A program made the translations under genes and the position numbers. A stretch of DNA of 63,179 nucleotides, filler included, from Reclinomonas americana ATCC 50394 (taxonomy: Eukaryota), in assembly GCA_048213135.1 (NCBI GenBank). It is 3 parts of 2 records of this genome, joined end to end, with 100 filler letters (N's around TTAATTAATTAA, not from the genome) between each part and the next. Parts side by side here need not be neighbours in the genome. Positions count along the whole stretch, not along the records: positions 1 to 27,222 come from PS015194.1; 2 more parts are not named here. One strand, written 5' to 3'. Shown one piece after another: positions 1,773-63,179 of this stretch (position 1 is its first letter; each line of letters begins with the position of its first letter). The notes below the pieces were generated by a model, which had not been told where the DNA came from, did no database searches, and worked only from the letters and a program-made list of their open reading frames with translations.

Positions 1773-2428
1773 CTGGATATGCACGACGTGTTATGCTCGC
1801 ACACCTATAACAACGAACACTCTGCGCACGTCTATCTCTCTCTCTCTCTCTGTGTGTTAGTGTGTGCACTCGGCACATGGGCAAAAGATGACATTGAAAA
1901 AAACACAGACACACACGCGGAAATGGATGAGCGCCTCCGATGATACTCGCAGATTCACACTGCAAAATGCCACTCTTGTTCTCCGCACACACGCGCGCGC
2001 ATTCACACACAGTGAGAGAAAGAAAGAAAGAGAGAGTGAGAGAGTGAGTGAGAGACACACAACACGAGAGAATGAGAGAGAGGAGATGCGCGAGTCGGCA
2101 CATACACACAAACACATCAGTGAACATTCTTCTCCTCGCTCACTCACTCACTCATTCACTCACCAGGCGCCTTGACAAACGGCGGATTGGCGGTGTTCTC
2201 GAGCGCAGTGGACATGATAGAGTGTGGCGAGTGGCGGAAGAGGAGAGACGCGGAGAGAGAGTACAAACAAACGCCAAGTTCACGATCCGTCGGTTTGATT
2301 TGTCATATAATACCGGCTTCATTTGTGTGCGACTCGCCTGTGCGGGATTTTGAAGTTGCGGTACATAGGCGGTGCTGCATCAGATCCGCACGGTTGTGTA
2401 ATTGAAGCTGCACTGTGTACGGTATAGA

Positions 2429-3100
2429 ATGAGCAGCGATGAATCGATGATTGTGTATGTGCCGCCGCCGGCATTGCATGTGCTGTGCCAGGCGATTCCC
2501 GCGCGCCTCATGATTGGCTGCTTGGTGTGCGACTCGTCACTGGTGTTTGCGGTGCATGTGAATCCGACAACGGCCAATGGGCGGCTGCTGGTGCGTTTGG
2601 TCAGCACCACTGATCGCCTCGGTGAGCTCGAGGATGGCGGCGATGAGCCGGTGGATGTGAGCACAATCAGTCGTGCGTACACGGCGAGCGAGTTGTTTGG
2701 CTTGCATGCGTGCATGGCGGTGTTGGCGACGGCGTTGCAGCCGTATTGCGTGCAGGAGTGGGTCGCTGGCAACAATGCGCAGAGTGTCGACGAGGAGAGT
2801 GGGCGAGTGGTGGTGGGGGCGCGGGAGCCTGGCATTCTGCATGCACACTTGGCGATTCGTGTGCAGCCGCTGTCGCTGCAGCCGCCGGTGCCGATTGATG
2901 GCGTGCCCGTCGGCACCGAGTTGCACCTGTCGACGGGCAAGGTGCCGTGGGCGGAGTGTGCAGAGGGCACACTGGAGGCGTTTGTGGAGTTTGTGCGTGA
3001 GGCCGTGGCGCGTGCGTGGGAGGCCGAGGATGCGGAGTCGTTGAGAGCGTGTGCGGCGCGCGCTGCGGTGGAGTGGTTTCCCGCGCGCCGTCGCCAGTGA
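2429..3100 (+). CDS. Intronless hypothetical protein (~223 aa)
   Basis: Uninterrupted GC3-rich ORF from ATG 2429 to TGA 3098-3100; no motif recognised. Confidence 0.6.
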   Translation: MSSDESMIVYVPPPALHVLCQAIPARLMIGCLVCDSSLVFAVHVNPTTANGRLLVRLVSTTDRLGELEDGGDEPVDVSTISRAYTASELFGLHACMAVLATALQPYCVQEWVAGNNAQSVDEESGRVVVGAREPGILHAHLAIRVQPLSLQPPVPIDGVPVGTELHLSTGKVPWAECAEGTLEAFVEFVREAVARAWEAEDAESLRACAARAAVEWFPARRRQ

Positions 3101-3348
3101 GGAGGCGATGGCGGTAGTTGGGGGCGTGGGGCAGGCGGCTGTGTGCACGTGGGAGTGAGCGGAGGTGAGAGAGACGCCAGCTTTGTCGTGTCCGCACCAA
3201 GTGTGACACTCTGCTAAATACTGTACCTCTCCGTCGCTGCCGGTTGTGTTCAGTCGAGTTCTCGTCGAGTCTGCGGCAAGACCCACAAGTGCGGCCACGG
3301 CCACCGGCCTCGTGCGCACAAGAACCTCACTGGTGCCCACGATGCGAT

Positions 3349-3429
3349 GGTGAGAGAGGCAATGGCGAGCTCCTTCATCGTCTTTCAGCAGAACTCATTC
3401 CGGGGCTGCCGCACCCCTCTCTCACTTTT
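3349..3429 (+). ncRNA. Putative structured small RNA, unit 1
   Basis: GGTGAGAGAGG pairs with CCTCTCTCACT; GGCGAGCTCC pairs with GGGGCTGCC; conserved CCTTCATC; ends in TTTT. Confidence 0.65.
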
Positions 3430-3560
3430 GTTTCTCTTTTTCCCCGGTTCGGTGTCACAGACTCGACAGGCAAGTGGACGATTGAGGAGGCAGGCCCACA
3501 ACACTGCTGCATGGCAATGGAACTGCGCACACAAGAGGCAAGCCGGCACCCAGACTTGAA

Positions 3561-3640
3561 GGTGAGAAGGGCCAAGGCAAGCTCCTTCATCATTCTTCCA
3601 AAACGCTCGTCTCCGGGGCTGCCGCACTTCCTTCTCTTTT
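3561..3640 (+). ncRNA. Putative structured small RNA, unit 2
   Basis: GAGAAGG/CCTTCTC lower stem (compensatory change vs unit 1); GGCAAGCTCC/GGGGCTGCC upper stem; TTTT end. Confidence 0.65.
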
Positions 3641-3854
3641 GCTTCTTTTTGCTCCCTCATATACCTGCCACAAGGAAGACTCTTGGTCTTCTCGCATGCG
3701 CTTCTTGCCTCCCTTTTTGCTCCCCTTTTGCTTGGTGCGTGCACATGCGCTGACTGAGTATGGTGTGTATTTCACAGTCAAAACTTGGCCCACAACAGCA
3801 TTGCACGACAATCACACTACACAGACAAGAGCCAGGCCGATGTGCAGTTCAACA

Positions 3855-3945
3855 GGTGAGAGAGGCAATGGCAAGCTCCTTCATCTTACCAAGAAAAGCC
3901 CGCAATGATCACTGACTCCGGGGCTGCCGCACTCCTTTCTTTTTT
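3855..3945 (+). ncRNA. Putative structured small RNA, unit 3
   Basis: Same stems (GAGAGAGG/CCTTTCTT with G-U pairs), different loop, T6 end. Confidence 0.65.
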
Positions 3946-4119
3946 GCAGTTTTGTCTTTGGTGATGCATGATGCACTGACAGATTGCATGCATGCGCTGA
4001 CAGAGTACCATTTGTATTCGACAGTCGACTTGGCAAGTGGACGATCGAGGAGGCCCACAACACCGCTGCATGGTAAGGGAACTGGGTACACAAGAGGCGA
4101 GCCGGCACCCAGACTTGAA

Positions 4120-4199
4120 GGTGAGAAGGGCCAAGGCAAGCTCCTTCATCATTCTTCCAAAACACTCGACTCCGGGGCTGCCGCACTTCCTTCTCTTTT
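4120..4199 (+). ncRNA. Putative structured small RNA, unit 4
   Basis: Near-identical to unit 2; same promoter spacing. Confidence 0.65.
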
Positions 4200-4370
4200 G
4201 TCACTCTACTTGCTTCAGCGGTCTCTTCTCGTTTCCTTTTTTTGACATGTCCCGTTTTGTACACTGCTGAGTTCGACGGTCAAATTCACCAATCCCAGTC
4301 TGGGCCCACAACTCTGCTCTTGCGCAGTCGGTCTGTGGAGACAAGAGGCAAGCTAGCACGCTGTCTTCTC

Positions 4371-4491
4371 AGTGAGAGAGGCCATGGCAAGCTCCTTCAT
4401 TGTGACAACGTTTTCCAACATTATCCAGTTCGTGCATTTGTTCCCGCATTTGCATTCCCCTCCGGGGCTGCTGCACTCCCCTCTCTTTTTT
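4371..4491 (+). ncRNA. Putative structured small RNA, unit 5 (long loop)
   Basis: AGTGAGAGAGG..GGCAAGCTCCTTCAT, ~60-nt loop, CTCCGGGGCTGCTGCAC..CCTCTCTTTTTT. Confidence 0.6.
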
Positions 4492-4711
4492 GCTTGGGTT
4501 TGCTCTTCTCAACCACAAAGAAGACTCTTGATCTTCTCGCGTGCGCTTTTTGGCCGACACATTCCTCCTTTTTTGCATTCCCTTTGCTTGGAGCCTGCAC
4601 ATGTGCTGACTGAGTATCGTGTGTATATCACAGTCAAAACCTATGCCCACAACAGTATTGCACGGCAGTCACACTGCACAGACAAGAGCCATGCCGATGC
4701 TCAGTTCAACA

Positions 4712-4802
4712 GGTGAGAGAGGCAATGGCAAGCTCCTTCATCTTAAAGAAAGCCCGCAATGATCACTGACTCCGGGGCTGCCGCACTCCTTTCTTTTTTT
4801 TT
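4712..4802 (+). ncRNA. Putative structured small RNA, unit 6
   Basis: Paralog of unit 3; T9 end. Confidence 0.65.
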
Positions 4803-4943
4803 GCACTTTCTCTTTGGTGATGCATGCAGGTACCGCCTGTATTCGACAGTCGACTTGGCAAGTGGACAGCCGAGGAGGCCCACAACACCACTGCGTGGTA
4901 CGGAACTGCGCACACAAGAGGCAAGCCGGCACCCAGACTTGAA

Positions 4944-5024
4944 GGTGAGAAGGGCCAAGGCAAGCTCCTTCATCATTCTACCAAAACATTTCGACTCCGG
5001 GGCTGCCGCACTTCCTTCTCTTTT
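4944..5024 (+). ncRNA. Putative structured small RNA, unit 7
   Basis: Paralog of units 2/4; TTTT end. Confidence 0.65.
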
Positions 5025-5117
5025 GCTTCTTTTTGCTCCCTCATATGCCTGCCACAAGGAAGACTCTTGATCTTCTCACGTGCGCTTCTTGCCTGCCNNN
5101 NNNNNNNNNNNNNNNNN

Positions 5118-7058
5118 CCGCCGCCTCGGCTGTCGCACTCGCCGATCCAGACTTTGCAGTTGCCTCTGCCTCCTCGTCGGCTGGCACGCGGTCCAGGAAC
5201 CACTCTCGCATCTCCGGGGCAAACATAAACTGGTGCTCCGAAGTGAAGCTATCTGTGCCGGCCAGCTGCACCACAAACGCCAACGCCGGAACGTCCGGAA
5301 CGTTGTCAAAGCGCACCGTCACTGTGACACGGCTCGTGCGTGGTGCCTGTTGCACGAAGAGATCATTAGTTCATCAGTTGCACCAGTGGCATGCAAGCAG
5401 CGACACACAATGGTATCACACCAGTGGAACGGCAAATGAGCCATCGGCACCGCAGTCTCGCGCTCTGAACGCTGTGGCCTCACGCTGACCGTCCAACTTG
5501 AGCTGCACAACCGAGCAGAAGTGCGACCAGCCTGCCGGACGAGCGATGAAGAACTCGGAACCACGAGCACCGGCAGTCTTGCGCTGCGTGTTCATCACCA
5601 CTATTAGCAACCAGGAAAGAAATAGCACCACATCGAGAACACTCAACGCACCACTCCCAACGTGAAGGGCTTGACGTCGCGGTGCCGAGGCAGCTCCAGT
5701 CCAAGTTCGCGCAGCAAACCCAGCAGCACCTCGTCGGTGCGCGCACGAATGATCATCGAGGCACGGTGATCCTTCGGGGTCGGTTGCAGATTGGTGATCA
5801 CCAGCTTGCCTGTGTGGTGACCGACGAGAGGGGGTGAGACAGTCGTTGCAAGCAGTGTGCACGGCAAGCACCGCACCTCGTCCACTCTTGACAGGGATCA
5901 CGGGAATGTCGGCCGCCGGCGTCACCTTCAGACTGGTGCCAAACACCAGCGACAGGTCGGCCTTGCCGGCCTCCTCGTACGCACGCTCCAGCTCATCCTC
6001 TGGCAAGTTCTCGCTCTGTACATACGCACATACTACGCGTGAGCACGGGTGGTGCATGCAGCGCAGCGATTCTTGGCCGACTCCAACGCAACAAAGTTGA
6101 TGATCGAGTCGTGCAGGTGACCACCGCACTGCGGGCAGCGCCGTCCGGTCCGGTGATCGTGCACCTTTTGAGCAGTACGCGTACGCCACTCACGCCACAC
6201 CTTGTGGCCGCAGCTCTCGCACTGCTCCTTGCTGCATGTCCGGTCAAAGAATTCCGTCAGTCTCATGTGACGGAAAGTGCAAGTTGGAAGACAGACAGCG
6301 GTGCATGCGCAACTTGGTGTTGCCGTGCAACTCTGAGATGGCATCGCCCGGAATACCGCTTCGCACATGCAGACCGTCCGTGTTCTGCACACCGCAAACG
6401 ATTCAGGCCTGCTGGATTCGACGGCAACTCGACAATCATGCGAAATCGAAATGAACTCACTTGGCTGATGACGTGCTTGATGTAACCGGCCTTCACCAGT
6501 GCCACAATGGCCATGTGGCCGATGGTGGGGTAGTGCACTTTGGCGTCGGAGATGCTGCGCGAACCCTGCAAGCATACGATATCGAAAGGTGAGTGTGGTC
6601 CGAGGACAACTGGACTGTTTTTCCTATCCACGCTCACCGTCTCTCCGCGTGCACGCAGCGTCCACACACCATTCGGGCCGCTACTCACGCACGCACTGTC
6701 AGTGTCGATACATCACGAGCCTTTTCTTTTAACGCACACACACACACACCGGAAGTCTGAGATGCCGGCCGATGTGGAGATTCCGGCGCCAGTGGACACG
6801 ATCGCGTGGTCCGCGTTGCGAACCAACTCGGCCAATGCCTTGATGCGAGCTTGCACCACCTGCAGGTTACGGAGGGAAGAGAGGGTGAGACTCACGCGGC
6901 CGGACAGCGATTTGCCCGACTGGTACCGACCTCTGGCTCGTCAAAATACTGCATCGCAAACACCCGTCAGTGATCCGCCCGCCCACCTCTCTCACACACA
7001 GCCAAGCACATACACACACCTCCTTCACACGCTCCGGCGTCGCCTCCTCGGGATCCAT
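5118..7058 (-). CDS. Class IV sirtuin (SIRT6/SIRT7-like NAD-dependent deacylase) with C-terminal extension; 3' end in gap
   Basis: [39 protein letters not shown], ELHGN, CxxC..CPQC zinc site, FGTSLKVTPAAD, NLQPTPKD. Confidence 0.9.
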
Positions 7059-7389: not shown

Positions 7390-8158
7390 TTAGTACTTCT
7401 CCTCCACCAGGCCATGGCGCCAGTACATGAAGGTCGGGATACCCTCCGCATCCCACTCAACCAGCACGACCATGCTGTTCTCTTGCAGGTTCTCGCCCAT
7501 GTAGAAGCTCAGCTCGTCGGCCTTGCCCAGAATGCCGGCGATCACCGACTTGGACTGAGCCACCAGCTCAGCAGCAGCCTCCGGCTTGCCATCGGCCTCC
7601 AGCTTGGCCTTCAGTGCCTGCAGGTAGCCCTTGATGTGCGCTACGGAAACGCAAACACATGAAATCAGTCTCTGATTTTGCGCACACAGGAGAACAGCGA
7701 TTCGACGACTCACCCTGGTACTGCTTCTTGTCGAACGGGACCTCCTGCAGCTTGAACGCGTCGACAATGTTGATCACCCTCACAACACCGTCCTCGACGC
7801 CCTCCTCGCCGCACTCGAAGCCAGCGACGCCAGTGTCCTTCATGATGTAGGCGCCCTTGGCCTTGAGGAAAGGTCCGTCGACCTCCTCGCTGAGAGAGAC
7901 GAAGAAGAGATCAGCAATTGCGGAGGGAGAGAGAGAGACAGAAGAGGACTTACCCGTAGCTGTCCGACAGCATCTCATCGCCAGACTGTGAGTGATTGTG
8001 AGTCACATTATCTGCTGAGCAGGCGATGACAGGCACACGCTCACCATAATGTCCTTGAAGACCTGCGAGATCGAAAAGCAGGGGAAGGGGGGAGGGCGCA
8101 GGAGGGTCAGCGAACTGACATGGACACCATCTCAACGAAAGGACGTGCGCCCCTTCAT
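7390..8158 (-). CDS. TCTP: Translationally controlled tumour protein (TCTP)
   Basis: VFKDIMSGDEMLSDSY..VINIVDAFKLQE..FDKKQY..HIKGYLQAL..FYMGEN..PTFMYWRHGLVEEKY*. Start is either 8158 (MK) or 8130 (M). Confidence 0.92.
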
Positions 8159-10593: not shown

Positions 10594-12974
10594 ATGAGTG
10601 CCGCGCGGAGAGAGGAGGGCGACGGTGTGTGTGTGTGTGTGTGTGGAGGGAGAAGAGTGTGTGTGTGAGAGAGAAAGAGCGTGTGTGCTCACTCATGTGT
10701 GCAGATGTTGCCGATGAGGAGTATCAGCGCGGCCTCAACTTGCTCGTGCACATCAAGATGGGCAACATGAGCGAGTTGCGTCTTGCACACACACACATGC
10801 GCAAGGAGAGAGAAAGAGAGCACACGCGCACGTGTGTGTGTCTTTGTGTGTGTGTGTGTGTCATGGTGCAACATCTCACTTTTACGACCGCAGAGTGGTT
10901 CAATTGCTCGACTCTGGTGTTCCTGTGGACTTTTCCGGGGACAAGGGCATTACGGCGTTGCATGTGGCGGCGGCCAATAAGCAGGAGGAATTGGGGTTGT
11001 TGCTGGTGGAGCGGGGGGCGCGCATTGATGCACTCGATGATCAGTATCGCTGCAACGCGGCACACTATGGTGTGTGTGTGTGTGATGAGGGGGAAGGGAG
11101 ANNNNNNNNNNNNNNNNNNNNTTCGTGGCGTTGAACTGCGCAGGCTGTAGCGCACAATATGATATGCAGAGAGGAGAACAGAGCCTCTTGCCACGTGCTT
11201 GATTTCCTCCGATGAGACGCACTCAGACGAGCTTCTTTCTTGCTCCCTCGTCTCTCTCCGATGTGCGTACTTCCGACGCAGTGTTGGACTGCACAGAGAA
11301 GCGCGCAGTATGAAATGTGGAATGTCTCGCCTCGCTCCTGTTTTCCTCCGATGAGACGTGAGCTTTTCAGACTCCTCCTCCCCCTTCTCCTCTCTCGTCC
11401 ACTCCTCCTTGTCCTCACCCTTTTCCCTCCTCGGCGCAGCGGCGACGTCGGGTTGCACAGAACTCATTCGGAGGTTTCACGCGGCTGGGTTGGATTTCAC
11501 GCAAGTGAATCGTTTCGACGCGACGCCGATGCATTTGGTGGGCGACCGCGAGGTGTGCATTGCGATGCGAGATCTGGGATTGGACTTGGACATTCAAAAC
11601 AAGTGCGCACACCTGTGGCGATAGAGAGAGAAGAATTACGATTGTCTCTGTGTTAACGCTCATTCCTTGTGCTTTCTTTTGAAGAGCGGGGCGACGACCG
11701 ATTCATGTCGCGTGTCGTGACCATCGCGAAAGTGCGGCCTTGTTTTTGGTGGAGCACTCGCGACATCGATCCAGTCCCGACGAAGGTGAGAGCGGGTATG
11801 GCATTACTGACTCACGGCGCGTCGCGGTGATTTGCTGACTGCGTGCTGGCAGACGGCAACACTCCGCTGCACTTTGCGGCCACGTGTGGCAGTCGGGAGG
11901 TGGTCATTGCGCTGGCGGAGAAGGGTGTGGACATTGACGCACAAAATCACTTGCGACAAACGCCGTTGCATTTGGTGTGTGCTTGTGTACTCGACTCTTT
12001 GCTCCGTCGAGTGTCTTGTTGACGCTTGCGTGTGTGTGTGCGTGTGTTAGGCGGCGGAGCGTGGACACGATTCCGTGGCCGACTACCTCATTAGCAAGGT
12101 GTGGCTGATGTTCGGGGGGTTCTCTCTCGTGATATTCTACCGCTCACCCTGCCTCCACATTCACAGGGTGCAAGGACAGATCTGGCCGACTCACAAGGCA
12201 AGGTTCCCGACATTTCGTCGGGCCCCACCACGTCGGCGCAAGGTACGAGTACGAGGGGAGAGAGGGGGAGACGCCGCGTTTTGCACAGCTCACACGCTGC
12301 TGCATGCAGACTTTGAGGCGAGACGGAAAGAGGGATGGATGGTCAAGGAGGGCGGTAACTTCAAGTCGTGGAAGAAGCGGTGCGTGCAACTGGACCAATC
12401 GCCTCGTCTTCCCAGCACTCACTTTGTTTTACCATGGCAGCTGGTTTGTGCTGCACGGGCCAACACTGGAGTACTTTTCCGGCAAGCCCAAGGTTCGTAT
12501 GTTGTTGCTCTTCGCTGGCTAATTTGCGTTGCATCTCACGCTTGTACAGGCTGGCGACAAACCACGCGGTTCGGTCGACCTCAACGACATTGAGACTGTA
12601 TCCGAGGTTCACACACACACGCACACATCACGCTCACTCACTATCAACAACTCGTTGGTTTCCTCACTTCTCCCACGACACAGAGCATGAAGGGCACACG
12701 CTTTGTGATTGCACTGGCGGGGAAGCGCGGCAAGCGAACATGGTATCTGCAAGCCGAGACGCATGGTGAGAGAGCCAGGCGAAGAGAGTGGGAAAGAGAT
12801 CTCTCGGTAACTCAACTCGTTCGTGCAGCCGAGGAGAAGGAGTGGTTCCAAACACTGCAGGAGCAAGTCGACTGGCTGCGAAGATCGCGGTGAGTCGGTT
12901 TAAAATATTCATGCATCGCGAGGCTGTGACTGACTGACTCTCTATGTGCCTGCAGTCGTCGATCGGTGGCGTAA
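10594..12974 (+). CDS. Ankyrin-repeat + PH-domain protein
   Basis: Ankyrin motifs GITALHVAA, GNTPLHFAA, QTPLHL; PH motifs KEGWMVKEGGNFKSWKKRWFVL and EEKEWFQTLQ. Confidence 0.85.
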
Positions 12975-13282: not shown

Positions 13283-16252
13283 ATGATGACATACATGTGG
13301 GACTGCTCAAACCGGGCATTCGCGCTGGTCCCTGAAGGCACAGAAACGTTGCGTGCGAGAAGAGCGAGAGAGAGAAGAGAGAGAGAGGAGTTTTTGACAG
13401 TGAGTGTGAGAAGTGCGCCATTGTTCCGCCCCACGCACTCACGCACGCACACGCTCGTGTGCGCACCTGGTGCGTGCGTGTGTGCGTGTGTGTGACGTGC
13501 TGCTACTGTGTGAGTGTGCGCGCGCGCGAGAAGAAAGAGAGAACCTTCCGATATTCCTTCTTATTCATCACTCCACGTGCGACACTCTGCGCACATACGC
13601 ATGTGTGTGATGTGTATGTGTGCACACGCACACACGCGCACATCGCACTCCCTTTGCGCCTAATCCGTTTTCTGCGCGCCTCGTCTTTTTGTGTCGGAGG
13701 CCATGTCGGTCTCACACACGCACTCTCTCTCACGCAGTACCCTGGATGGACTGGGACTGGTGGCACCCGAGTACCTCTGCGACACCTTCGTAGATTGTAC
13801 AAGCTGGTCAGACGAAAGAGATTGTAATCCAAGTCTGGTGGCCACGTTGCGTTTCTGAGAGCAGGAAGAGTGACTGTGCGTGTATGTTTCGCTCATTCTC
13901 TCTGTGTGTAGGTTTTACTCGTTCCTTGTTATTACGGGATGCATTGCCGGCATCTTCCTTGTCGTCATCTACTTTGTGTGGAGACTACGGCAGCATCGTG
14001 TGATTCGCAAGGCGTCGCCCACGTTTCTCATTCTGCTGCTGTTGGGTGGTGGACTCGGATTCACTGCCATGTTGCCGTGGATTGGTGTGTGCTGCTGTTG
14101 TTGTGCGCGTGTGCAGTTGCGGCATGCGCTCACTATCGTGTCTCTTGTGTGTCTAGGTCGACCAACTGTGTCCGGCTGTCTCTTCCGTGCTTGGTTGCCG
14201 GGTCTCGCCTTTGTGTTTGGCTGGGGGTGCGCACAACAAGTCTCTCTCTCCTCACTCTTTCCGTCTCCGTGTCACTCACACGTGGGGAGCAGGAGCCTGT
14301 TTGCCAAGACCTACCGCATTCATCGTATCTTCAACAACAAGTCGTTGCAGAAGATCACTAAAGTGTCGGACTGGGACATGTTCAAGGTCGTGCTCATCTT
14401 GCTCACCATCGAAGTGGTGCGTACACGTACTCCACAAGCGCGCGCTCTCTCTCANNNNNNNNNNNNNNNNNNNNNNNNNNNNNNNNNNNNNNNNNNNNNN
14501 NNNNNNNNNNNNNNNNNNNNNNNNNNNNNNNNNNNNNNNNNNNNNNNNNNNNNNNNNNNNNNNNNNNNNNNNNNNNNNNNNNNNNNNNNNNNNNNNNNNN
14601 NNNNNNNNNNNNNNNNNNNNNNNNNNNNNNNNNNNNNNNNNNNNNNNNNNNNNNNNNNNNNNNNNNNNNNNNNNNNNNNNNNNNNNNNNNNNNNNNNNNN
14701 NNNNNNNNNNNNNNNNNNNNNNNNNNNNNNNNNNNNNNNNNNNNNNNNNNNNNNNNNNNNNNNNNNNNNNNNNNNNNNNNNNNNNNNNNNNNNNNNNNNN
14801 NNNNNNNNNNNNNNNNNNNNNNNNNNNNNNNNNNNNNNNNNNNNNNNNNNNNNNNNNNNNNNNNNNNNNNNNNNNNNNNNNNNNNNNNNNNNNNNNNNNN
14901 NNNNNNNNNNNNNNNNNNNNNNNNNNNNNNNNNNNNNNNNNNNNNNNNNNNNNNNNNNNNNNNNNNNNNNNNNNNNNNNNNNNNCGCGCAGGCATTGCTC
15001 GGCATCTGGTGCGACTCCTCCTTTACTTGTTGTTTTTGCTCCTCGTGCTCACCTGGGTTCATGGTCGCAGGGCTGCCGTATCCGTATGGAAACCTGTTAT
15101 TCGAGACGACGTGGCCGACAAGCCGCATGTCGAGTGTGATGTGCGTTGACGTTGTTTGTGTGGCTGGCCTCCGCTCTTCACTCACTCGAGCCATTTCGTC
15201 GCCAGGTCCGATTCAAGATATTATTCTACGGCTTATTGCTCGGCTACAAGGTTGCGTGTGGTGCTCTGTCGCACACTGTTGTTGCTGTCGTTGGCATACC
15301 GACCCGATGCGATGAATAGGTACTCCTAATGATCTGGGGTTGTAAGCTGGCCTGGGACACGCGAGGCGTCGACAAGGAATACAATGAGAGCAAGTACATT
15401 GCCATGTCGGTGCGTGCCGAACAGCGCAGCTTGCCAGTGGTGACACGCGGTGCTCACTGCTCACGATAGATCTTTGCATGGCTCATCCTCGGCATTGTCG
15501 TCTTCCCCATTCTGTTCTTGCCAATTTTGGCCACCGACCGTCTCACTGCGTTTGCCGTGCGCTCGTCGGCACTGCTGGTCGCCATCCTGATCGTGGAGAG
15601 TTTCCTCTTTGTGCCCAAGTTCTTTGCCATTCGTCGCGTCAACCGCGACGCAGAGAACACGGTATGTTTGTGTGTGTGTTTCTCCTCCATTTTTTTGTTC
15701 GTCAGCTTTCTTTTGACTCTCTTCCTCCACGCAGGCGCAAGCCATTAGTCCGCGGCAGCTGCCAAACATCACACCCGGTGGCGAGAACCGGTACCGCACC
15801 AAGTACCTGGAGAACGGAGCGCAGTCGCCCACTGCCCCGTCACCGCCTGCATTGCCTGTTACGCAAGCGCGCTCTCTCGACGGGGGAGACAAGTATCGCA
15901 CCAAGTACCTGGAGGGTGGACCGGCGTCGCCCAACTCGCCGCAGAATGGCGATGTGGTGTCACCCACGGGTGTGGTGCCGCTGCTGGCCGGACAACAGGT
16001 GGCCAGTGGTGCTCTGCCGCCATTGCCCCCACCACCGCAACGAACTGTTGAGTTGTCTATTGCCTTGCACGTCACCTTTTCCAATCCCAACTGACACATG
16101 CCTTGCAGCCTGGCGCAAGAATGTTTGGCGGCCAGGGTCGCTCGACACCAGCCATGGACCTCATGAGTGTGCCGTTGCCGCCGGCGCCGCTCCCGCCGCA
16201 ACTGCCAGCACCCGCACCCTCAGCAGCGTCATCTCCCAACGGACGTCGGTGA
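13283..16252 (+). CDS. Class C (GABA-B/Grl-like) 7TM receptor with N-terminal LDLa-like module; start uncertain
   Basis: VIRKASPTFLILLL, SLFAKTYRIHRIFNN, YNESKYIAMS, FVPKF are 7tm_3-like motifs. Upstream exon encodes EYLCDTFVDCTSWSDERDC. Confidence 0.8.
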
Positions 16253-30865: not shown

Positions 30866-33800
30866 ATGAGTGCGCGCCATGGTGACGACGAGGACAAGGC
30901 GAGCGTGGAGTCGCTGTTGCGGCGATTGCAGGTGGTGATGTTGCGGTGTCCGGTGGATGCACGGACGGGGCAGTTTGAGCGCGCTCGCGATGCCTCGCTG
31001 CATGCGTTTCTGTTGCGCGTCTTGTCGGCGCGCTTGGCTGTCGCCTCCTCCTCCTCTTCGTCGTCGAGTGGAGGTGGACGCGTGCAACGCACAGGTGTGT
31101 GCGCGTGTCTGTGTGTGTGCGTGTGCGTGCAGCGATCTCACGTGTGTGTGAGCAGATGAGGCTGGATCCACTGACGCGTATGTGATGGGCGAGATCATCA
31201 AGAAGAGGCGTTGCGTTCGCCCTTGCTCACGTGCTGGGCGGCTGGTTGTGCTGACGGATTCGCTTCCACACGTGCAGTGGCACAGCAGGGACGACCGGCG
31301 GCCGCGGTGGAGTTCTCAGATGCATTTCGGCGACTGGTGGCGCTGCCGATTCTCAAGCGCAAAGGACCGCTGCTGCATGTGCTGTCCACGGTGGCGCGGT
31401 ACAATGCGGCCGTGCAGCATGGCGTTGAGGTGCGCAAGTGGAGAGTGCGTCTGTGCCCTTGCTGTGTTTTTCTTTGCTGACAATGCCGACAGCCGGCACA
31501 CACGGCGTTTGCGGATCTGCTGTTGAAGGACGTGCCGTCTGCTGCAGCTGGCTCCGGCAAGTTGTCGTCAGCGGACAAGACAGTGGCGGTAGCACCGGGC
31601 ACGCGAGGCGATGGCGTCGCATTACCGCCGCCGTCGTCGTCGTCGTCGTCGCCACCCGACGACTTTCTGCAGGGCTTTTCCGATTCTGAGTCGCCCGAGC
31701 ACGGTGCGTCCCGTGGTGCGACGAGGCGAGGGGTCATCGTGGCACTCACCTCGTGTTGCACAACACAGAGTCGGTGCGCGTGTCCGAGTTGGTACTGCTG
31801 CGCGATATGATGTTTGTGCTGCAAGGCATCGACGGACGGCGGATTCGTTTCGACAGCGGGACGAACGCGTATGAAGTCGATAGCGCCGTGTCCGTGCCGC
31901 CCACTTTCCACGCCATGATTCGGCGCATTGGCGAGCTGGGCTGGCTCTACCGAAGGATTTCGACATTTACGCATGCCGTCAGTGCCTCGGCGACCACGAC
32001 CGGACTCGTGGCGCAGAGCTTCTGCTCGACGGTGCAGCAAGAACTGGCCGCCTACTACCGCAGCATTGCCATTTTGGAGACGCAGATGAACTTTGAGGGT
32101 TGCGTCTCCAGTGTGCCGATGCAGCGTGCGAGTTGCGTGTGTGAAAACTGATCCTCTTTTGCTGTCTCTCTCTCTCAGCCGCCAAGGTGCGGTCGGGCGA
32201 GCAACCTGTACACTATCTGTCATTGCGAAAGTTGGTGGTGTGGATGGAGGAGCCGCTGCAGAGGCTGAAACTGATTGCCGTGTTGGTCGATGCGTGTGCG
32301 GAGCTGCATGGCGGCGAGCTGGCATCACGAGTCTACGAGTTCCACAAGCACGGCGATCCATTTGTACAGAGCTTTGTCGACAAGATCCTCCATCAGGTGT
32401 GTGGCGAGTGGGGAAAAAAAAGAGTGGCGAGTGCCCTGCAACTCATTTCCGTGCGTCAAGGTGTGCGTTCCGATTTTGAACATGATCCACCGATGGGTGT
32501 TCGAGGGCACGCTGGAGGATCCGTTTGACGAGTTCTTTGTGGCCTCCAACCCCAACGTAACACCCAATCGACTGTGGCACGACAAGTACTCTCTGCGCGA
32601 AAAGATGCGACCATCGTTCATTTCCGAGGCACTGGCACAAAAGGTGGCGTGACCCGCGGGACTCTGCTTCGTGGTGTCTCTCCCACACTCACTTCCAACA
32701 TGTGTTTGCCTGCCAGATCTTGTCCACGGGCAAGTCCATTAACTTTATTCGCCACTGCATGCGCGACTCGGAGTGGCTGATGGACTCGGGCGCCTCCACC
32801 ACGGCACAGCAGGGTGCGTAGACTGCCACCACTATCGGTGTCTTGTTGCCAACTGATCGCGCTCATTTGTGTTGATCAGCGCTGGCGGCTGGCGACTGGA
32901 CTGTGCTGGAGGGAGTCACTGATCAGGCTGCCGATATCACCAACCGGCACCTCATCACCACGATCTTCTCAAAGTACAAGATCGGCGCCCACATTCTCGC
33001 CCTCAAGCAGTACATGCTGTTGGGCCAGGGCGACTTTATCCAGTACCTGATGGACATTGTCGGGTGAGAACGTGGGAAAGAGGGCGAAAGGGAGATTTCG
33101 CGAGCTCACATCGGCACCGCCTCGCAGACCCGAGCTGAACAAACCGGCGAGCGCCGTGGAGCGACACAACCTGCCGGGCCTGCTCGAGTCAGCAATCCGA
33201 GGCTCCAATGCACAATTCGAGGACGAGAATGTGCTCGACCGGCTGGATGTGCGGCTGCTGCAGGTCAGTGTCCTCGGTTGTTCATCGCAGCTGCGATCGC
33301 GCACTCACCAAGTTGCGCAGGAATCCCCGGGCGACGACGGCTGGGCCGTGTTTTCGTTGGACTACAAGGTGGACGCTCCGATCGACACCATTCTGACCAC
33401 AGAGACGATGAACACGTATCTGCGCATCTTCAAGTACCTGTGGCGCTTCAAGCGCGCCGAACACTCGCTCAGTTCCATCTGGAGCCGGCACATGTCGCTG
33501 GCGCATATGCTGGTGCTGCCGCGTGACGCCGACCTTGCAGCGCTGCTGCATCGGTGCCGTCTGTTGTGCCATGAAATGGCCCACTTCACCTCCAATCTCG
33601 GCTACTTTGTCATGTTTGAGGTGTGGCGTGTGCGCACTCGACACGCTCTCGCCGACGCCACTTATCTCACTGCTGCTGTTTGCTGCGCAGGTGTTGGAAT
33701 GCTCGTGGGAGGAACTGCAGCGCTCCATGCGATCGGCACCGGATCTGGACGCCTTGCTAAAAGCGCACAACCAGTACTTGGATAGCATTGTGGAGCGCTC

Positions 33801-34254
33801 GCTGCTGGGCGACGACAAGGATGTGGAGGCGTTGCGGACGTTGATTACCCGGATTTTGGACCTGATCCTCCAGTTCAGATACGCCCAGGAGCGCGCGTAC
33901 ATGGACCTGGATGCGGAACTGAGTCGCCGGTCGGGCTCCGCCGGTCAGGAGAGCGGCAGTCGGTGGGGCAGCACCAAGACACTGGCAGAGGAACAGGCGG
34001 AGCAGGCGCAGTCGGTGAAACTTGTGCGCTCGATTGCACAGAACGCGCGCCTGACACGCGAAGCCTACTCGGATCTGCTGCACAATCTGATGGATCTCTT
34101 GTCACGCGTCAGCTCCCACGACGACATGCTGAAGTACCTCTCCTTCCGTTGCGTAGTCTGTCCGTCGTTGTCAACAAGCGCGGCGGCGTGTCTCACCCGA
34201 CGTGTTTGAGCAGGTCTCGACTTCAACGAGTACTACGACAATGGAGGCTCGTAG
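30866..34254 (+). CDS. TUBGCP3: Gamma-tubulin complex component 3 (Spc98/GCP3)
   Basis: LLRDMMFVLQGIDG, GELGWLY, GLVAQSFCS, HGDPFV, ALKQYMLLGQGDFIQYLMD, GWAVFSLDYKVDAP, RLDFNEYY. Confidence 0.9.
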
Positions 34255-43172: not shown

Positions 43173-45539
43173 ATGTCTCTTGCCTCGCACATGCAGACGC
43201 ACCTGCGCGAGTGGTCGCGTCAGTTGCGTGCCAGTGGGCACGGGGTGACTGCTGCGGCAGTGGGCGCGGGTGCCAGTGCACTGGTCGGTGCCTGGCTCTG
43301 GCATCGTCATCGCACGCAGCAGCTGGCGCGACAGCAGCGTGGAGAGCAGCTCAGTGTGGTGGCGAACAAGCACGACCCGCAGCAGCAGCATGCATCGTCG
43401 AGGTGAGACGCACGTGAAAAATGAGAATGAACAGGGAATGTATGACTGACTCGTGTGTGTGCGTGTGCTCGTGTGTGTGTCCCCTCCAGTGGTCGGCGAC
43501 TGGAGAACGCGCGGTTCTATGCACAGCTGCGGCGACTGTTGAAGATTGTGCTGCCGGGGTGGCGATCGAAAGAGGCGCTTTTGCTCGGATTGCACACGGG
43601 GTTCCTGGTCACACGCACCTTCTTGTCGATCATCAAGGCCAAGCTTGATGGTGTGTGTGTGTGTGTTGGGTGCTCGGGCGGCGACTGCTGCATTTGGGTT
43701 GCCATTCACCATTCAAATACCTGCTTCTTTCGGGCTGGTGGTCGCAGGTGTGCTGGTGAAGACCGTGGTTGGTGCTGAGCCGCGCGAGTTTGTCAAGTTC
43801 CTCCTGCTGTGGTGTGCACTCGGCATTCCGGCCTCCTTCACCAATGCCATGATTGTGTTCCTGGAGAAGAAGGCGCGCACAACGCTGCGACAACGAATGG
43901 TTTCCTTTTGTCAATGCTGATGGTTTCGTTGTTGCAGGTGGCGCTGGCCTTCCGCACGCGTCTCATGAACCACGCCAGCGATCTGTACATGAAGGACGAG
44001 GCGTACTATCGCACCGTCAACCTCGACGCACGCATCTCTAATCCCGACCAGCTCATTTGCGAGGTTCGTTTGTAGCGGAGATGTGGCACAAAAAGATTCT
44101 AATCTCGTGTCTCCTCCATGCAGGATGTGAACCGATGGTGCCTGCAGCTGGCGCATCTGCACTCGCAGCTGTCCAAGCCGATTCTCGACGTGATTCTCAT
44201 GACCGCGCAGCTGGTCTACATGGGCAAGGAGGGTGCGTGGATGAATCACAAGAAAATGGATGAGTGTCGTTCGGTATGTTCGCTCACATGTGCATTGTGT
44301 ATGCATGCAGCCGCCGGCTACCGGCAAGTGGCCGTGACGTCGTCGATTGCGGCATTTGTAGTGGCTCTCACGGCCCGCATTCTGAAGTGGGCGCGCCCGC
44401 CGTTTGGTCGCCTGGTCGCCGAGCAAGCGAGGGTGAGTGAGCGAGCGCATGCATCTTGCTCACGTGTCGCTGCTCATCTCACTCTTCTTCGCGGCAGCTG
44501 GAGGGCGACTTGCGCTATCGACACAGTCGCCTGATCACCAACGCCGAGGAGATCTCGTTCTACGGTGGCGCCACGGTGGAGAAGGGATTCTTGAATCGCG
44601 CCTACATGGCGCTGGTGCGTCAGGTCAACCTGATTTACCGCAAGCGCGCCGCGTACTCTACCGTCGAGGATCTGTGCATGAAGTACTTGTGGAGCGCCAG
44701 TGGCTTCACCATCATGGCACTGCCGGCGTTTATGGCGCGCGCCGACTCGCGTGTCGCGCAGTCGGGCACCGCTGGTTTGCTGATCACGTCTTCTCCCTTT
44801 TTGTACTTTCCATGCCCCCCACTCACGTGTCCACGCAGGCCGCACGGAGATCTTCATCACTGCGCGCTCGCTGCTCATCAGCTCCTCCGATGCCATTGAG
44901 CGCATCCTGTCGGCGCTCAAAGAGGTGTCGGAGCTCGCCGGCTACACCGATCGCGTCTCGGAGATGCTCACTGTGTTTGAGGACGTGGCCAAGGGTCGCT
45001 ACGAGAAGGCGCAATTGCGTGGCACCGACATGTCCGAGTTCCCCAAGCCGGAGGTTGTCGACGGGCAGGACTTCATTCAGTTGGATCGCGTTGCGTCTGC
45101 TCGCCCCTCTCTTTCTGTTTTCTCCCGCCTGCTCACCCGACCCGACGGACCAGGTGCCGATTGTGTCGCCGAACGGAGACGTGCTGGTCAAGTCCATGTC
45201 GTTCACCATGCGCCGCGGCATGCACCTGCTCATCACCGGGCCGAACGGGTGCGGCAAGAGCTCCATGTTCCGCATCATCGGAGGCTTGTGGCCTGTGCTG
45301 GGCGGCCGTCTGGTGAAGCCGGCGCGCCAGGACGTGTTTTACGTACCGCAACGGCCGTACCTGAGGTGTGTGCACCGTCAAGCACCAGAGTATACACGCA
45401 GCTGTCATCCTAATCCTTTGCTGTTTGTAGTCTGGGCAACCTGCGCGATCAAGTCATCTACCCCGACTCGATGGAGGTCATGAAGGCCAAGGGCTTCACG
45501 GACGCCGACTTGATGCGCATTCTGGACACGGTGAGTGCG

Positions 45540-51980: not shown

Positions 51981-53069
51981 TCATCGCCGCGAGCGACGAC
52001 TCGGCTGTGTTCGTTGTTGTTGTTGCTGCTGCTGTTGTTGTTGTTGCTGCTGCCGTCCCTCGTACACACCAGCATAGTAGCCCGAGTAATAGTACGAGAG
52101 GAGCAGATTGTGCAGATCGGCATCGGTGCCAGGCAACGGTGGCGGTGGCATGGGCGACGCAGCAGCCGCAGCAGTCGCAGTCGCAGCAGCGGCACGAGTC
52201 GGCGGCGGAGCGATGCGATACCCGTCCTGGTAATAGACTGGCGTTGGCGCCACCTCCTCCTCCTCCTCTCCCTCCTCCTCGTCTTCTTCTTCACCATCCT
52301 CGTCTTCCTCCTCGTCATCGTACTCATCCGCCGCCGCCGCCGATGCTTCTCCCACTCCGCCACCATACGACCACGCAGCGTACGGCTGCATTTGCTGCTG
52401 CTGTTGCTGCTGTTGCTGGTAGTACGCAGCCCACGCAGCAGCCGTCGGATCCGAACTCCTGCGCCACCGCCAGCCACACGTGAGTCCAACGAAGGATAAG
52501 AGGCCAGCACGACAAACGCAACGCATAGTACGCGGCCGTGTACGGATCATACTGCTGTTGCTGCTGCCCGTACCCATACTGCGCATAGTACGCTGCAGTA
52601 GCAGCAGCAGCAGCGGTGCTGTCCACTGCATCCTCGGATGCAGTCTTCGCCTTTGACTTCTTACTCTTCTTCGCCTTGTCCTTCTTTTTCCTCTTCTCTG
52701 CTCCCTCGCCCTCCTCCTCGCCCTCCTTCTTGCTGGACTTGTGCTTGCCATGCTTGTCCTTCTTCTCCTTGCGCTCCTTCTTTGACTTCTTCTTCTTGTG
52801 CTTCTTCTCGTCCTCCTCCTCCTCCTCCTCTTCACTGCGCGGTGGCACACGATGCCGCGCACTGTACTCACTCTGCGCCTGCTCCCACGCACGCAGCAGT
52901 GCCGAGTCGTCCCACAAATCGCTGTTCTGCTGCGTGGACACTCACAATAAGACCCTTGTGTGTGTGTGTGAGAAAGAGAGAGTGTGTGAGCGAGCGTGTA
53001 GGACGCAACGCGCAGCTCGGCAATGGTGTACGTCACACCAGGCTCCACGTGTGTCACCGGCGTCGCCAT
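51981..53069 (-). CDS. SMN: Survival motor neuron (SMN) homolog
   Basis: N-terminal SDLWDDSALLRAW (Gemin2-binding); C-terminal PMPPPP..LHNLLLSYYYSGYYAGVYEG (YG box). Confidence 0.8.
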   Translation of the reverse strand: MATPVTHVEPGVTYTIAELRVASYTLAHTLSLSHTHTQGSYCECPRSRTAICGTTRHCCVRGSRRRVSTVRGIVCHRAVKRRRRRRTRRSTRRRSQRRSARRRRTSMASTSPARRRARRRAREQRRGKRRTRRRRVRSQRRRLHPRMQWTAPLLLLLLQRTMRSMGTGSSNSSMIRTRPRTMRCVCRAGLLSFVGLTCGWRWRRSSDPTAAAWAAYYQQQQQQQQQMQPYAAWSYGGGVGEASAAAADEYDDEEEDEDGEEEDEEEGEEEEEVAPTPVYYQDGYRIAPPPTRAAAATATAAAAASPMPPPPLPGTDADLHNLLLSYYYSGYYAGVYEGRQQQQQQQQQQQQQRTQPSRRSRR

Positions 53070-57996: not shown

Positions 57997-59265
57997 TCCT
58001 TTCATTCTTCTCGGTCTCTATTTCTTTTCTTTTCCCCTCTTGTTCCCTCTCTCTTTCCTCCTTTCATTCATTGTTTGTTTGATTCTCTCTCTCTCTAGAT
58101 TTCTCTTTCGCTATTCAAGGGGCTTTGTGTCGATGTTGATGCTGTTGGCTCTGTCCTTTCCTGTCTCCATTTCCTTCTGCATGAGATTTCTCTCATCGTC
58201 GTTGTTGTGAGAGAGCTTGTTGGTGGCCTGCTCATCTCCCTCTCTCTCTCTTTCTTTTTCTTTCTCTTCTACACGAGTCAGCTTTGCGTCGATGTGGGTG
58301 CCGTTTTCTTTTCTCTCTCCTCCTTCCGTTCTGCATTGAGAGCGTGTCGATGCCTTGAGGTTTCGCTACGTATTTTTGTTTTTGCACGAGAGCTGTGTTG
58401 TGTGAGTCTCGCCTGCTCGTTTTCTCTCTCTCTCTCTCTCTCACTCGCTCACTCTCTCTTCTCAAGTGATGTTGCCACTGTACGTGAGAATTCGTTCTTG
58501 TCCTTGTTGTTGTTGCAAGTGAGCTGTGGGCCAGTGTGAGTGCCATTTGGCCTCCTCCTTCTCTCTCCCTCTCTCCTTCCCCCGTACTTCCTCCCTTTCC
58601 TCCCTTGCCCCCCCTTTTGCTCACCTCCCTTCCCCCTTTCCGCAGAGCCCGCGANNNNNNNNNNNNNNNNNNNNNNNNNNNNNNNNNNNNNNNNNNNNNN
58701 NNNNNNNNNNNNNNNNNNNNNNNNNNNNNNNNNNNNNNNNNNNNNNNNNNNNNNNNNNNNNNNNNNNNNNNNNNNNNNNNNNNNNNNNNNNNNNNNNNNN
58801 NNNNNNNNNNNNNNNNNNNNNNNNNNNNNNNNNNNNNNNNNNNNNNNNNNNNNNNNNNNNNNNNNNNNNNNNNNNNNNNNNNNNNNNNNNNNNNNNNNNN
58901 NNNNNNNNNNNNNNNNNNNNNNNNNNNNNNNNNNNNNNNNNNNNNNNNNNNNNNNNNNNNNNNNNNNNNNNNNNNNNNNNNNNNNNNNNNNNNNNNNNNN
59001 NNNNNNNNNNNNNNNNNNNNNNNNNNNNNNNNNNNNNNNNNNNNNNNNNNNNNNNNNNNNNNNNNNNNNNNNNNNNNNNNNNNNNNNNNNNNNNNNNNNN
59101 NNNGAAGGAGGTTGACGCAGTGAGGTGATTGAGAGAGTAAGTGAGTGTGTGAGAGAGAAAGGGATGGAGCGGGAGAGAGAGAGAGAGAGAAATCCAGGAA
59201 GAGAGCCGAGAGAACTTTCATTACCCTTTAAAGGTTACTCACTTCCATCCCCCCTCCACCCCACA

Positions 59266-59988
59266 GTGCTTCTGGAGAGGTACGGCGGCTCGGAGCACAT
59301 GACCAAGGTGCCGGAGGAGTTGGTGCTGGCGGCGTCGGAGCGCTACGTGGAGTACGGTGCTGACGGCAAGCCGCTGATCAAGGCCAAGGGGCCGGTGATT
59401 GCGCGCAGCAAGTACGAGGAAGACGTGTACGTCAACAATCATTCGTCGGTGTGGGGCTCGTACTGGAAGGATGGCCAGTGGGGCTACTCGTGTTGCAAGT
59501 CGCTGTCGAAGGACTCGTATTGCCGCGGACCCAAGTAAGTTTTGAGAAGGGAAAAGGAACTCGGTGACGTGCTCGCTCACTGTCTCCCCTTTCGCAGTGC
59601 GCGCGACTCGGAGGACGACCTCATCGCGGAGATGATTCGGCGCAAGGAGATGGAGCTGGAGCAGAAGCGGTTGGCGGACGAGGCGGCGGCGGCGTCGGGG
59701 AGCAAGAGTGGGCGGAGAAAACGCGGCCGCAGTGAGGAGAGCGGGAGCGGGAGTGGTAACAGCGACGACGACGACGAGGAGATGGAGCGGAAGCGCAAGG
59801 TCAAGGAGGCGATGCGGCGGGAGCAGGAGCGCATTCGGCGGCTGCGGGAGGAGGGGTTGGCGGATGATCGGAAGCGCGGGTACAATTCGCTGGCGGGCGA
59901 CTCGGAGCATCATGTGCGGGAGGAGGATTTGGAGGCGTTTATGTTGACGAGGGAGCATTATGATGATCCGATGAGGAAGGGGAAGTGA
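59266..59988 (+). CDS. SLU7: Pre-mRNA splicing factor SLU7, 3' exons
   Basis: LLERYGGSEH..RSKYEEDVYVNNHSSVWGSYWKDGQWGYSCC..RKRGYNS..EDLEAF..DDPM. Confidence 0.9.
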
Positions 59989-62975: not shown

Positions 62976-63084
62976 CTGTGAACACAGCACACACACATGA
63001 GTGAGAGAGAGGAGAGTGAAAGAGGGAAGTGAATGCAAGCACTCATTCTCTCACTGCTTCTCCACAATCACAGACACGCTCTCT

Positions 63085-63095
63085 CTTGCTCTCTT

Positions 63096-63179
<84 letters not shown>
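63085..63179. repeat. (CT)n then (GT)n microsatellite at scaffold end
   Basis: Direct reading. Confidence 0.9.

Follow-up and report, generated by a model that had tools for sequence, protein, structure and literature searches.

In this study, we investigated a tandem array of seven repeated units at positions 3282 to 5024 of a stretch of DNA from the nuclear genome of the jakobid Reclinomonas americana ATCC 50394 (assembly GCA_048213135.1). The whole stretch that was analysed, which we call the window, is 63 kb long (63,179 nucleotides with the filler between its joined parts), and all positions count along it. We consider it likely that the array represents at least seven autonomous small-RNA genes that are clustered in tandem and belong to one uncatalogued family, with promoters of the small nuclear RNA (snRNA) type and rod-shaped products that would serve as scaffolds of ribonucleoproteins (RNPs). 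The array itself is real and non-random, and it is composed of at least seven small candidate genes, each preceded by what reads as its own bipartite upstream promoter. These genes very probably encode an uncatalogued family of rod-shaped RNAs of 80-121 nt that carry a variable loop.

Organization of the array

Parsing of the sequence by script gave seven head-to-tail units, all on the plus strand, with a repeat length of 212-341 bp. The order of the parts is the same in all seven: CCCACAA (box 1), ACAAGA (box 2), a block opening with RGTGAGA, at which the predicted RNA begins, and a run of four to nine T residues (T4-T9), which is directly followed by G in every unit. ACAAGA starts 36 bp after the start of CCCACAA in six of the units and 35 bp after it in unit 7, and the offset from CCCACAA to RGTGAGA is 67, 66, 66, 66, 66, 66, and 65 bp in units 1 to 7. 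In extended form, the consensus of box 1 is GGCCCACAAC and that of box 2 is SACAAGAG. An alignment of the seven units contains 46 invariant columns, and the units fall into four paralogue types, namely unit 1 on its own, type A (units 2, 4, and 7), type B (units 3 and 6), and type C (unit 5).

The compound pattern CCCACAA-N(24-34)-ACAAGA has seven matches in the 63-kb window, all of them within the array, and no match in any of 100 dinucleotide-preserving shuffles. The sequences GCTCCTTCA and CCGGGGCTG likewise occur seven times each in the window, in the array only. CCCACAA alone is not rare (14 matches in the window versus 8.0 expected); its seven sites outside the array are without an ACAAGA box, and nothing RNA-like is seen downstream of them by eye. 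All parts of the seven-unit grammar lie on the plus strand where the original prediction, made from the sequence without database searches, had placed them, and the statistics of the compound pattern bear that description out.

Unit 1 (3282-3429) has box 1 at 3282-3288, box 2 at 3318-3323, and a predicted RNA of 81 nt at 3349-3429 that ends in T4; it scores 83.6 bits against the covariance model (CM) of the family and has a lower stem of 11 bp and a folding z-score of -3.5. The type A units are unit 2 (3495-3640; box 1 at 3495-3501, box 2 at 3531-3536, and a predicted RNA of 80 nt at 3561-3640 ending in T4; 94.9 bits), unit 4 (4054-4199; box 1 at 4054-4060, box 2 at 4090-4095, and a predicted RNA of 80 nt at 4120-4199 ending in T4; 96.6 bits), and unit 7 (4879-5024; box 1 at 4879-4885, box 2 at 4914-4919, and a predicted RNA of 81 nt at 4944-5024 ending in T4; 95.6 bits). 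Unit 4 is a paralogue of unit 7, and a 150-nt stretch with unit 2 (3492-3641) is 95% identical to the corresponding stretch with unit 4 (4051-4200). Type B comprises unit 3 (3789-3945; box 1 at 3789-3795, box 2 at 3825-3830, and a predicted RNA of 91 nt at 3855-3945 ending in T6; 103.1 bits) and unit 6 (4646-4802; box 1 at 4646-4652, box 2 at 4682-4687, and a predicted RNA of 91 nt at 4712-4802 ending in T9; 97.7 bits), which are paralogues via a segmental duplication. Unit 5 (4305-4491; box 1 at 4305-4311, box 2 at 4341-4346, and a predicted RNA of 121 nt at 4371-4491 ending in T6; 77.1 bits) is the most divergent. Its predicted RNA starts with A and has a 60-nt loop, T in place of C at one position of the 3' block, and an internal TTTT at 4411-4414, which is RNA position 41; the unit may represent a variant with a leaky terminator or a copy in decay.

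The units are separated in part by a spacer element with the hairpin GAAGAC-TCTTG-GTCTTC, which lies at 3668-3731, 4513-4576, and 5052-5097, that is, after units 2, 5, and 7 and not after units 1, 3, 4, and 6. This element is part of a higher-order repeat of ~850 bp that consists of a spacer, a type B unit, a spacer, and a type A unit. After units 2 and 5, the spacer element leads into a type B unit, and 3' of unit 7 it is interrupted by an assembly gap of 20 N (5098-5117). Because this gap cuts the element that elsewhere precedes a type B unit, the array is probably longer than assembled and would extend beyond the seven units described here. A 23-nt motif, GGCAAGTGGACGATYGAGGAGGC, adjoins box 1 on its upstream side at 3469-3491, 4032-4054, and 4857-4879 and is confined to the three units of type A, where it may act as an upstream element specific to that type or simply reflect shared ancestry.

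Conservation of the boxes and RNA ends

Identity between the types is 0.88 in the 5' block of the RNA and 0.84 in its 3' block, and it drops to 0.54 in each of the two promoter spacers, 0.51 in the flanks, and 0.42 in the central loop. Shuffled sequences passed through the same aligner give 0.43-0.53. The lengths of the spacers are constant to ±1 bp, though their sequence is at background identity. The same mosaic appears in an internal segmental duplication (3641-4230 versus 4492-5097), in which none of the 144 columns in the boxes and RNA end blocks differ, compared with 22 of the 160 columns in the spacers and loops (Fisher p=3.8e-7); the difference persists when the RNA blocks alone are set against the loops (p=6e-5). 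The intergenic DNA that flanks the units in this duplication is merely 55% identical, and no sequence is conserved across the types downstream of the TTTTG end. We read this pattern, the strongest evidence in this study, as purifying selection on the two DNA boxes and on both ends of the presumed transcript. It is the pattern that independently promoted genes under such selection would leave, with two boxes at a fixed distance, RNA end blocks, and a T-run all conserved, and it agrees with the proposal that each unit has its own promoter.

Predicted structure of the RNAs

A common rod-like plan was predicted in all seven single-sequence folds and in the consensus fold (17 pairs), as had been expected of a shared architecture. 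The lower stem is built of GA and CU arms and measures 8 bp, or 11 bp in unit 1. Next come a conserved, asymmetric internal loop, with CAAU or CCAA on one side and GCAC on the other, and an almost invariant upper stem of 9 bp, in which GGCRAGCUCC pairs with GGGGCUGCY and an A is bulged. The variable loop spans 20-60 nt and differs between the four types, except for an invariant UUCAU at its start and UCC at its end.

Standard pairs fill 99.2% of the 119 consensus pair cells, compared with 55.5-68.9% after the 3' partners are slid by one to three columns. G-U pairs occupy 16 of the 119 cells and would be mismatches on the opposite strand. Folding energy does not discriminate between the strands of the seven units; the plus strand is assigned because the G-U pairs and the order of the boxes decide. 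The box-bearing 78-79 nt that end at the ACAAGA box have no shared structure (z-scores of -0.48 to +1.36), as expected of promoter DNA.

Search for known families and relatives

Rfam 15, which includes models of Y_RNA, Vault, 7SK, snRNAs, spliced-leader (SL) RNAs, and small nucleolar RNAs (snoRNAs), gave no match at the gathering score over the whole window and none at E<=10 over positions 3100-5100. At E<=5, there were 24 weak matches in the whole window, none of which overlaps the array. The units had been described as an unrecognised family, and that description holds up in the search with the covariance models of Rfam. The CM found no further copy in the 63-kb window, also with its filters off; copies dispersed in the manner of a short interspersed nuclear element (SINE) or a miniature inverted-repeat transposable element (MITE), an origin that had been raised for the units, are therefore absent from the window outside the array. 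A metagenome scan with the two conserved blocks returned 31 loci, all of them chance matches that score at most 16 bits against the CM and match just the searched words, and a stricter pattern had no match in 185,579 prokaryote genomes, a control for contamination and false positives.

A possible partial copy of the 5' block precedes box 1 of unit 1 by 118 bp, where GGTGAGAGAGAC (3164-3175) repeats the first 10 nt of that block (GGTGAGAGAG). The sequence GGTGAGAGAGA at 3164 is without boxes and gives no CM match even with filters off; a splice donor, a remnant, and a chance occurrence are all plausible explanations of it.

Three other identities were tried for the units and rejected. For a tRNA-derived SINE or type 2 RNA polymerase III (Pol III) element, ARAGORN found no tRNA, matches resembling A and B boxes are at or below chance with none conserved across the units, and the 63-kb window contains no copy beyond the array. 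For a cluster of snoRNAs (C/D or AGA-box H/ACA-like), there is no match to an Rfam snoRNA model and no shared hairpin in the 78-79 nt up to ACAAGA; a C/D-like string, UGAUCA...CUGA, is present in the loops of type B only. For coding exons or protein repeats, the DNA between units is the least conserved, indels are mostly not multiples of three, and Pfam matches none of the open reading frames (ORFs) that cross the array; by reading, the minus-strand frame ATGAAGGAG... meets a stop in type B.

Promoter layout and a model for transcription

Box 1, with its CCCA core, stands at about -66 in all seven units, which fits the position of a proximal or upstream sequence element (PSE or USE; -55 to -70). 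At -30, SACAAGAG is present in seven of seven units, and T4-T9 directly follows the 3' arm in all of them, with no internal run of T4 or longer in six. The 36-bp spacing between box 1 and box 2 is one that we take, from plant snRNA gene work, to be of the Pol II type and not the Pol III type.

The Dictyostelium upstream sequence element (DUSE), printed as [AT]CCCA[AT]AA, is placed ~63 bp upstream of noncoding RNA, snRNA, and Class I genes (PMC3188802) and is described as serving both Pol II and Pol III genes (Sucgang 2011, PMC3188802; Kjellin 2021, PMC7919456). The plant USE is given as TCCCACATCG together with a -30 TATA box, and the spacing of the two decides the polymerase (PMC11961915). 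The array element [GA]CCCACAA, found 65-67 bp upstream in all seven units, fits six of the eight positions of the printed DUSE and differs at two, which makes it a similar element with a different consensus.

The units had been read as having the layout of type 3 Pol III genes. The upstream element, the -30 box, and the oligo-T end are present as that reading has it; box 2 is not a TATA box, and the Pol II-transcribed SL RNA genes of kinetoplastids have the same layout (PMC1888695), so layout alone does not assign the genes to type 3 Pol III. Nor does the T-run prove Pol III, given that the host, like Leishmania, belongs to the discobids and that box 2 is no TATA box. We consider Pol III more likely than SNAPc-dependent Pol II with T-tract termination.

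In the model that we favor, each gene would have an external bipartite promoter of the snRNA type, in which box 1 at about -66 would be a USE/PSE-like element, comparable to those that SNAPc binds in other eukaryotes, and SACAAGAG would be the box at -30. Transcription, most likely by Pol III, would start at the purine of RGTGAGA and stop in the T-run right after the 3' arm. The 5' and 3' ends of the resulting RNA of 80-121 nt are predicted to pair into a rod, from lower stem through internal loop and upper stem to variable loop. The invariant rod could be where a protein partner docks, the variable loop could be the paralogue-specific working part, and a La-type protein may bind the U-tail if the RNA is a Pol III product. 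In its putative cellular role, the RNA would be the scaffold of an RNP in the manner of Y RNAs or Class I RNAs, together with a presumed binding partner.

Alternative explanations

Several observations weigh against this model. The lower stem had been said to co-vary, and this is true of two of its eight pairs, which have changed on both sides; two more show only G-C/G-U switches. The two compensatory pairs are essentially one event that separates type A from the rest. Covariation is thin: in a set of 500 column shuffles, 13 attain the observed score and 97 the observed count of compensatory pairs. The z-scores for folding, which run from -3.5 to +0.2, are modest, two of the units do not fold better than their shuffled counterparts, and as no relative was found beyond the window, the structure rests on seven paralogues in four types. 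Tracts of (GA)n...(CT)n are common in the window, and GA-rich 5' ends and CU-rich 3' ends are generic to the introns of this genome. The lower stem may therefore be partly a by-product of composition, and what appears specific to the family is only the register-specific pairing of that stem and the invariant upper helix. The -30 box is in the right place and invariant, and it is not TATA-like. If units 1, 2, 4, and 7 truly terminate at their T4 ends, the internal T4 of unit 5 ought to halt Pol III as well, so that either T4 would be a leaky stop or unit 5 would be impaired. The start and length of the units also resemble those of local introns, and gene conversion limited to the blocks could imitate purifying selection; each of these last two points is the core of a different explanation of the array.

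The resemblance to introns could mean that the units are introns, or stable RNAs derived from introns, of one long transcript, noncoding or part of a 3' untranslated region, that runs through the array. RGTGAGA would then be the 5' splice site, the polypyrimidine tract would consist of the CU arm and T-run, and the acceptor would be the first AG downstream, which is found within 4-33 nt after every T-run. The local 5' splice-site consensus is of the same RGTGAGA/GTGAGA type as the unit start, local introns of ~50-110 nt with CU-rich ends match the units in length, and GGTGAGA is found outside the array, including at a confirmed donor. The highest-scoring CM match that is not a family member (19.1 bits) corresponds to a true intron of 58 nt in the ABC transporter gene (44432-44488), and a HIT-like ORF lies upstream of the array on the same strand. 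However, conservation is lowest in the would-be exons, and 84-100% conservation inside introns between drifting exons would invert the usual pattern. These exons would have to be noncoding, because their indels between recent duplicates are mostly not multiples of three (e.g., 1, 2, 11, and 31 nt) and the distance from CCCACAA to RGTGAGA itself varies (65-67). Splicing also gives no role to two invariant boxes at a fixed distance 5' of each "donor," and we regard an intronic origin as improbable. We likewise give little credence to a nonfunctional tandem repeat, that is, a satellite or decayed gene array whose blocks are kept alike by patchy gene conversion. The array has grown by recent segmental duplication, and unit 5 looks impaired in its A start, altered 3' block, and internal T4, as such a repeat would allow. 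Conversion tracts, however, would need the same block borders in every unit and would have to pass over spacers of 24-29 bp that separate blocks of 6-30 bp; spacer length is held to ±1 bp while spacer sequence is at background, and the pairing is register specific.

A family of small-RNA genes could also be a known one in disguise. Y RNAs and stem-bulge RNAs (sbRNAs) have paired ends, an internal loop, a bulged conserved upper helix, a variable loop, a U-tail, and multiple paralogues. The overall plan of the array RNAs is the same, and Rfam models come mostly from animals, fungi, and plants, so a universal small RNA (a Y RNA, a vault RNA, a 7SK-like RNA, or a divergent snRNA) might have diverged beyond recognition by sequence or structure models. 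The absence of any Rfam match at E<=10 over 3100-5100, or on the array at E<=5 window-wide, and the lack of conserved A or B boxes in the units make this unlikely. Still another explanation is an SL-RNA-like array, in which Pol II would act via SNAPc and the RNAs would offer a 5' splice donor for trans-splicing or be related to the SL RNA of Euglenozoa. Here, the predicted RNA does open with a consensus donor, G|GUGAGA, but the start predicted from the boxes leaves a single-nucleotide "exon," with GU at +2/+3. A start at ACAAGA would give a leader of 30-31 nt that is at background between the types (0.54 versus 0.47 for shuffled sequences), as are the 24-25 nt ahead of GU (0.54 versus 0.47), and because of this divergence such a leader could not pair consistently with the invariant downstream sequence. 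No conserved Sm-like site is seen by eye in the seven-unit alignment, and no SL family of Rfam matches. To our knowledge, and with no search aimed at it, trans-splicing is not known in jakobids. In favor of the idea, the layout closely matches that described for Leishmania SL RNA arrays (PMC1888695), and the host belongs to Discoba, the supergroup that also contains Euglenozoa (PMC7900873). We consider an SL-RNA-like array highly improbable. The same slight credibility attaches to a jakobid counterpart or relative of the euglenozoan SL RNA genes whose donor would be held in a stem by the polypyrimidine-like 3' arm, so that a free-standing "mini-intron" RNA would act as a trans-splicing donor or as a U1/U2AF decoy. 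If that were true, the raw material for SL trans-splicing would be placed in the common ancestor of Discoba.

Genomic setting

The window comes from the nuclear DNA of a eukaryote with introns and has ~57% G+C and many assembly gaps. The array is intergenic, between the HIT-like ORF at 2402-3097 on the plus strand and a weak Sir2-like ORF at 5419-6189 on the minus strand. Pfam matches in the window, which are partial, include TCTP, a G-patch protein, gamma-tubulin complex component 3 (GCP3), PRA1, ARID, a peroxisomal-type ABC transporter, MORN repeats, SMN, an MFS transporter, and Slu7. The neighboring genes are ordinary eukaryotic housekeeping genes that short introns interrupt, namely those for TCTP (7393-8002, minus strand), GCP3 (31690-34206, plus strand), the peroxisomal-type ABC transporter (43446-45480, plus strand), an SMN-like protein (52327-52941, minus strand), and Slu7 (59116-59535, plus strand). 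A TCTP exon shares 76 of 83 residues (92% identity) with a protein from a Reclinomonas americana expressed sequence tag, and the best named relative of GCP3 is from Andalucia godoyi (51%); these matches place the host among the jakobids, near Reclinomonas. None of these five products is more than 92% identical to an entry in the protein collection, and the genome therefore appears to be unannotated there.

Introns delimited by alignment to proteins are short and begin with GTG or GTA. Outside the array, GGTGAGA occurs 13 times on the plus strand and 4 times on the minus strand (e.g., at 33063, 44432, 49612, and 12765), and at least two of these sites are true 5' splice sites of short introns (~58-62 nt). 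Four low-complexity hairpins (1729-1861, 62995-63120, 10780-10865, and 13425-13495) gave weak, subthreshold matches to microRNA models. They consist of (GA)n facing (CT)n or (GT)n facing (CA)n, with minimum free energies of -41 to -50 kcal/mol and z-scores of -2.7 to -3.9, and are probably microsatellite-type intron or intergenic sequence and not RNA genes.

Significance and comparison with known systems

We found nothing on nuclear noncoding RNAs or their promoters in jakobids among the titles and abstracts listed by our literature searches. If the array is expressed, it would provide the first candidate for a lineage-specific small RNP in this group, along with a promoter grammar (GGCCCACAAC at -66, SACAAGAG at -30, and a TTTTG stop) by which other snRNA-type genes could be found. 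It would also mean that the CCCA-core element of plants and Dictyostelium and the -60/-30 layout of kinetoplastids are present in a free-living discobid, an occurrence that bears on the age of SNAPc-type promoters. Nothing is overturned by such a family, as small-RNA families restricted to single lineages are to be expected among protists that have been poorly sampled.

Y RNAs, nematode sbRNAs, and other type 3 Pol III genes have an upstream element plus a -30 box, a purine start, and an oligo-U end. Like the Y RNAs and sbRNAs, the array units have a putative external promoter, a predicted purine start and oligo-U end, and several clustered paralogues, and their predicted products are rods of paired ends with an internal loop or bulge and a variable loop. 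Unlike Y RNAs and type 3 genes, they have no TATA box, and their sequence gives no Rfam Y_RNA or Vault match at E<=10.

The Class I RNAs of dictyostelids offer a second comparison. They are ~50-65 nt long, start with AAG, and end with CUGU (Kjellin 2021, PMC7919456), and they have been reported to be restricted to Dictyostelia (Sucgang 2011, PMC3188802; Kjellin 2021, PMC7919456). Beside the 5' stem arm, they carry a conserved motif of 11-12 nt, CCTTACAGCCAA, with the 8-mers CCTTACAG and CTTACAGC (PMC3188802; PMC7919456). Class I and Class II RNAs and the predicted array RNAs are alike in being multicopy small RNAs with a CCCA-core element ~60-66 bp upstream, a terminal stem of paired ends, T-runs downstream, and a conserved motif beside the 5' arm followed by a variable region. 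The array RNAs differ from Class I RNAs in length (80-121 nt) and in their ends (an RGUGAGA start and a U4-U9 end), and they have a second, invariant upper helix and a second invariant box at -30; their host is in Discoba, and the Class I hosts are in Amoebozoa. The CCTTACAGCCAA motif is absent from the array, and CTTACAGC with at most one mismatch has a single match there, in the loop of unit 1 (3382, CTTTCAGC), with 23 matches in the whole window versus 37 expected by chance. Membership in Class I is rejected on the absent motif and on length and ends. The likeness to Y RNAs, sbRNAs, and Class I RNAs that had been proposed is thus a fair analogy of architecture and does not extend to membership, as the Class I motif, length, and ends are not found and no Rfam model matches.

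The closest likeness in genomic layout is to the SL RNA arrays of kinetoplastids. In Leishmania tarentolae, these arrays are tandem repeats of 296-363 bp (MINA/MINB) with elements at -67/-58 and -40/-31, transcribed by Pol II with homologues of SNAPc and TBP and ended by a T-tract terminator (PMC1888695). Both arrays consist of head-to-tail repeats of a few hundred base pairs (296-363 versus 212-341 bp) in a host of Discoba, with a -60/-30 bipartite promoter, an RNA of ~100 nt (predicted in Reclinomonas), and a T tract. The array differs from SL genes in having no conserved leader exon before GU, seven assembled copies and not 40-60, and four types of copy with different loops where the SL copies are identical. 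Set beside these systems, the array of Reclinomonas is a new family, as judged from its sequence, but one of a known kind of gene.

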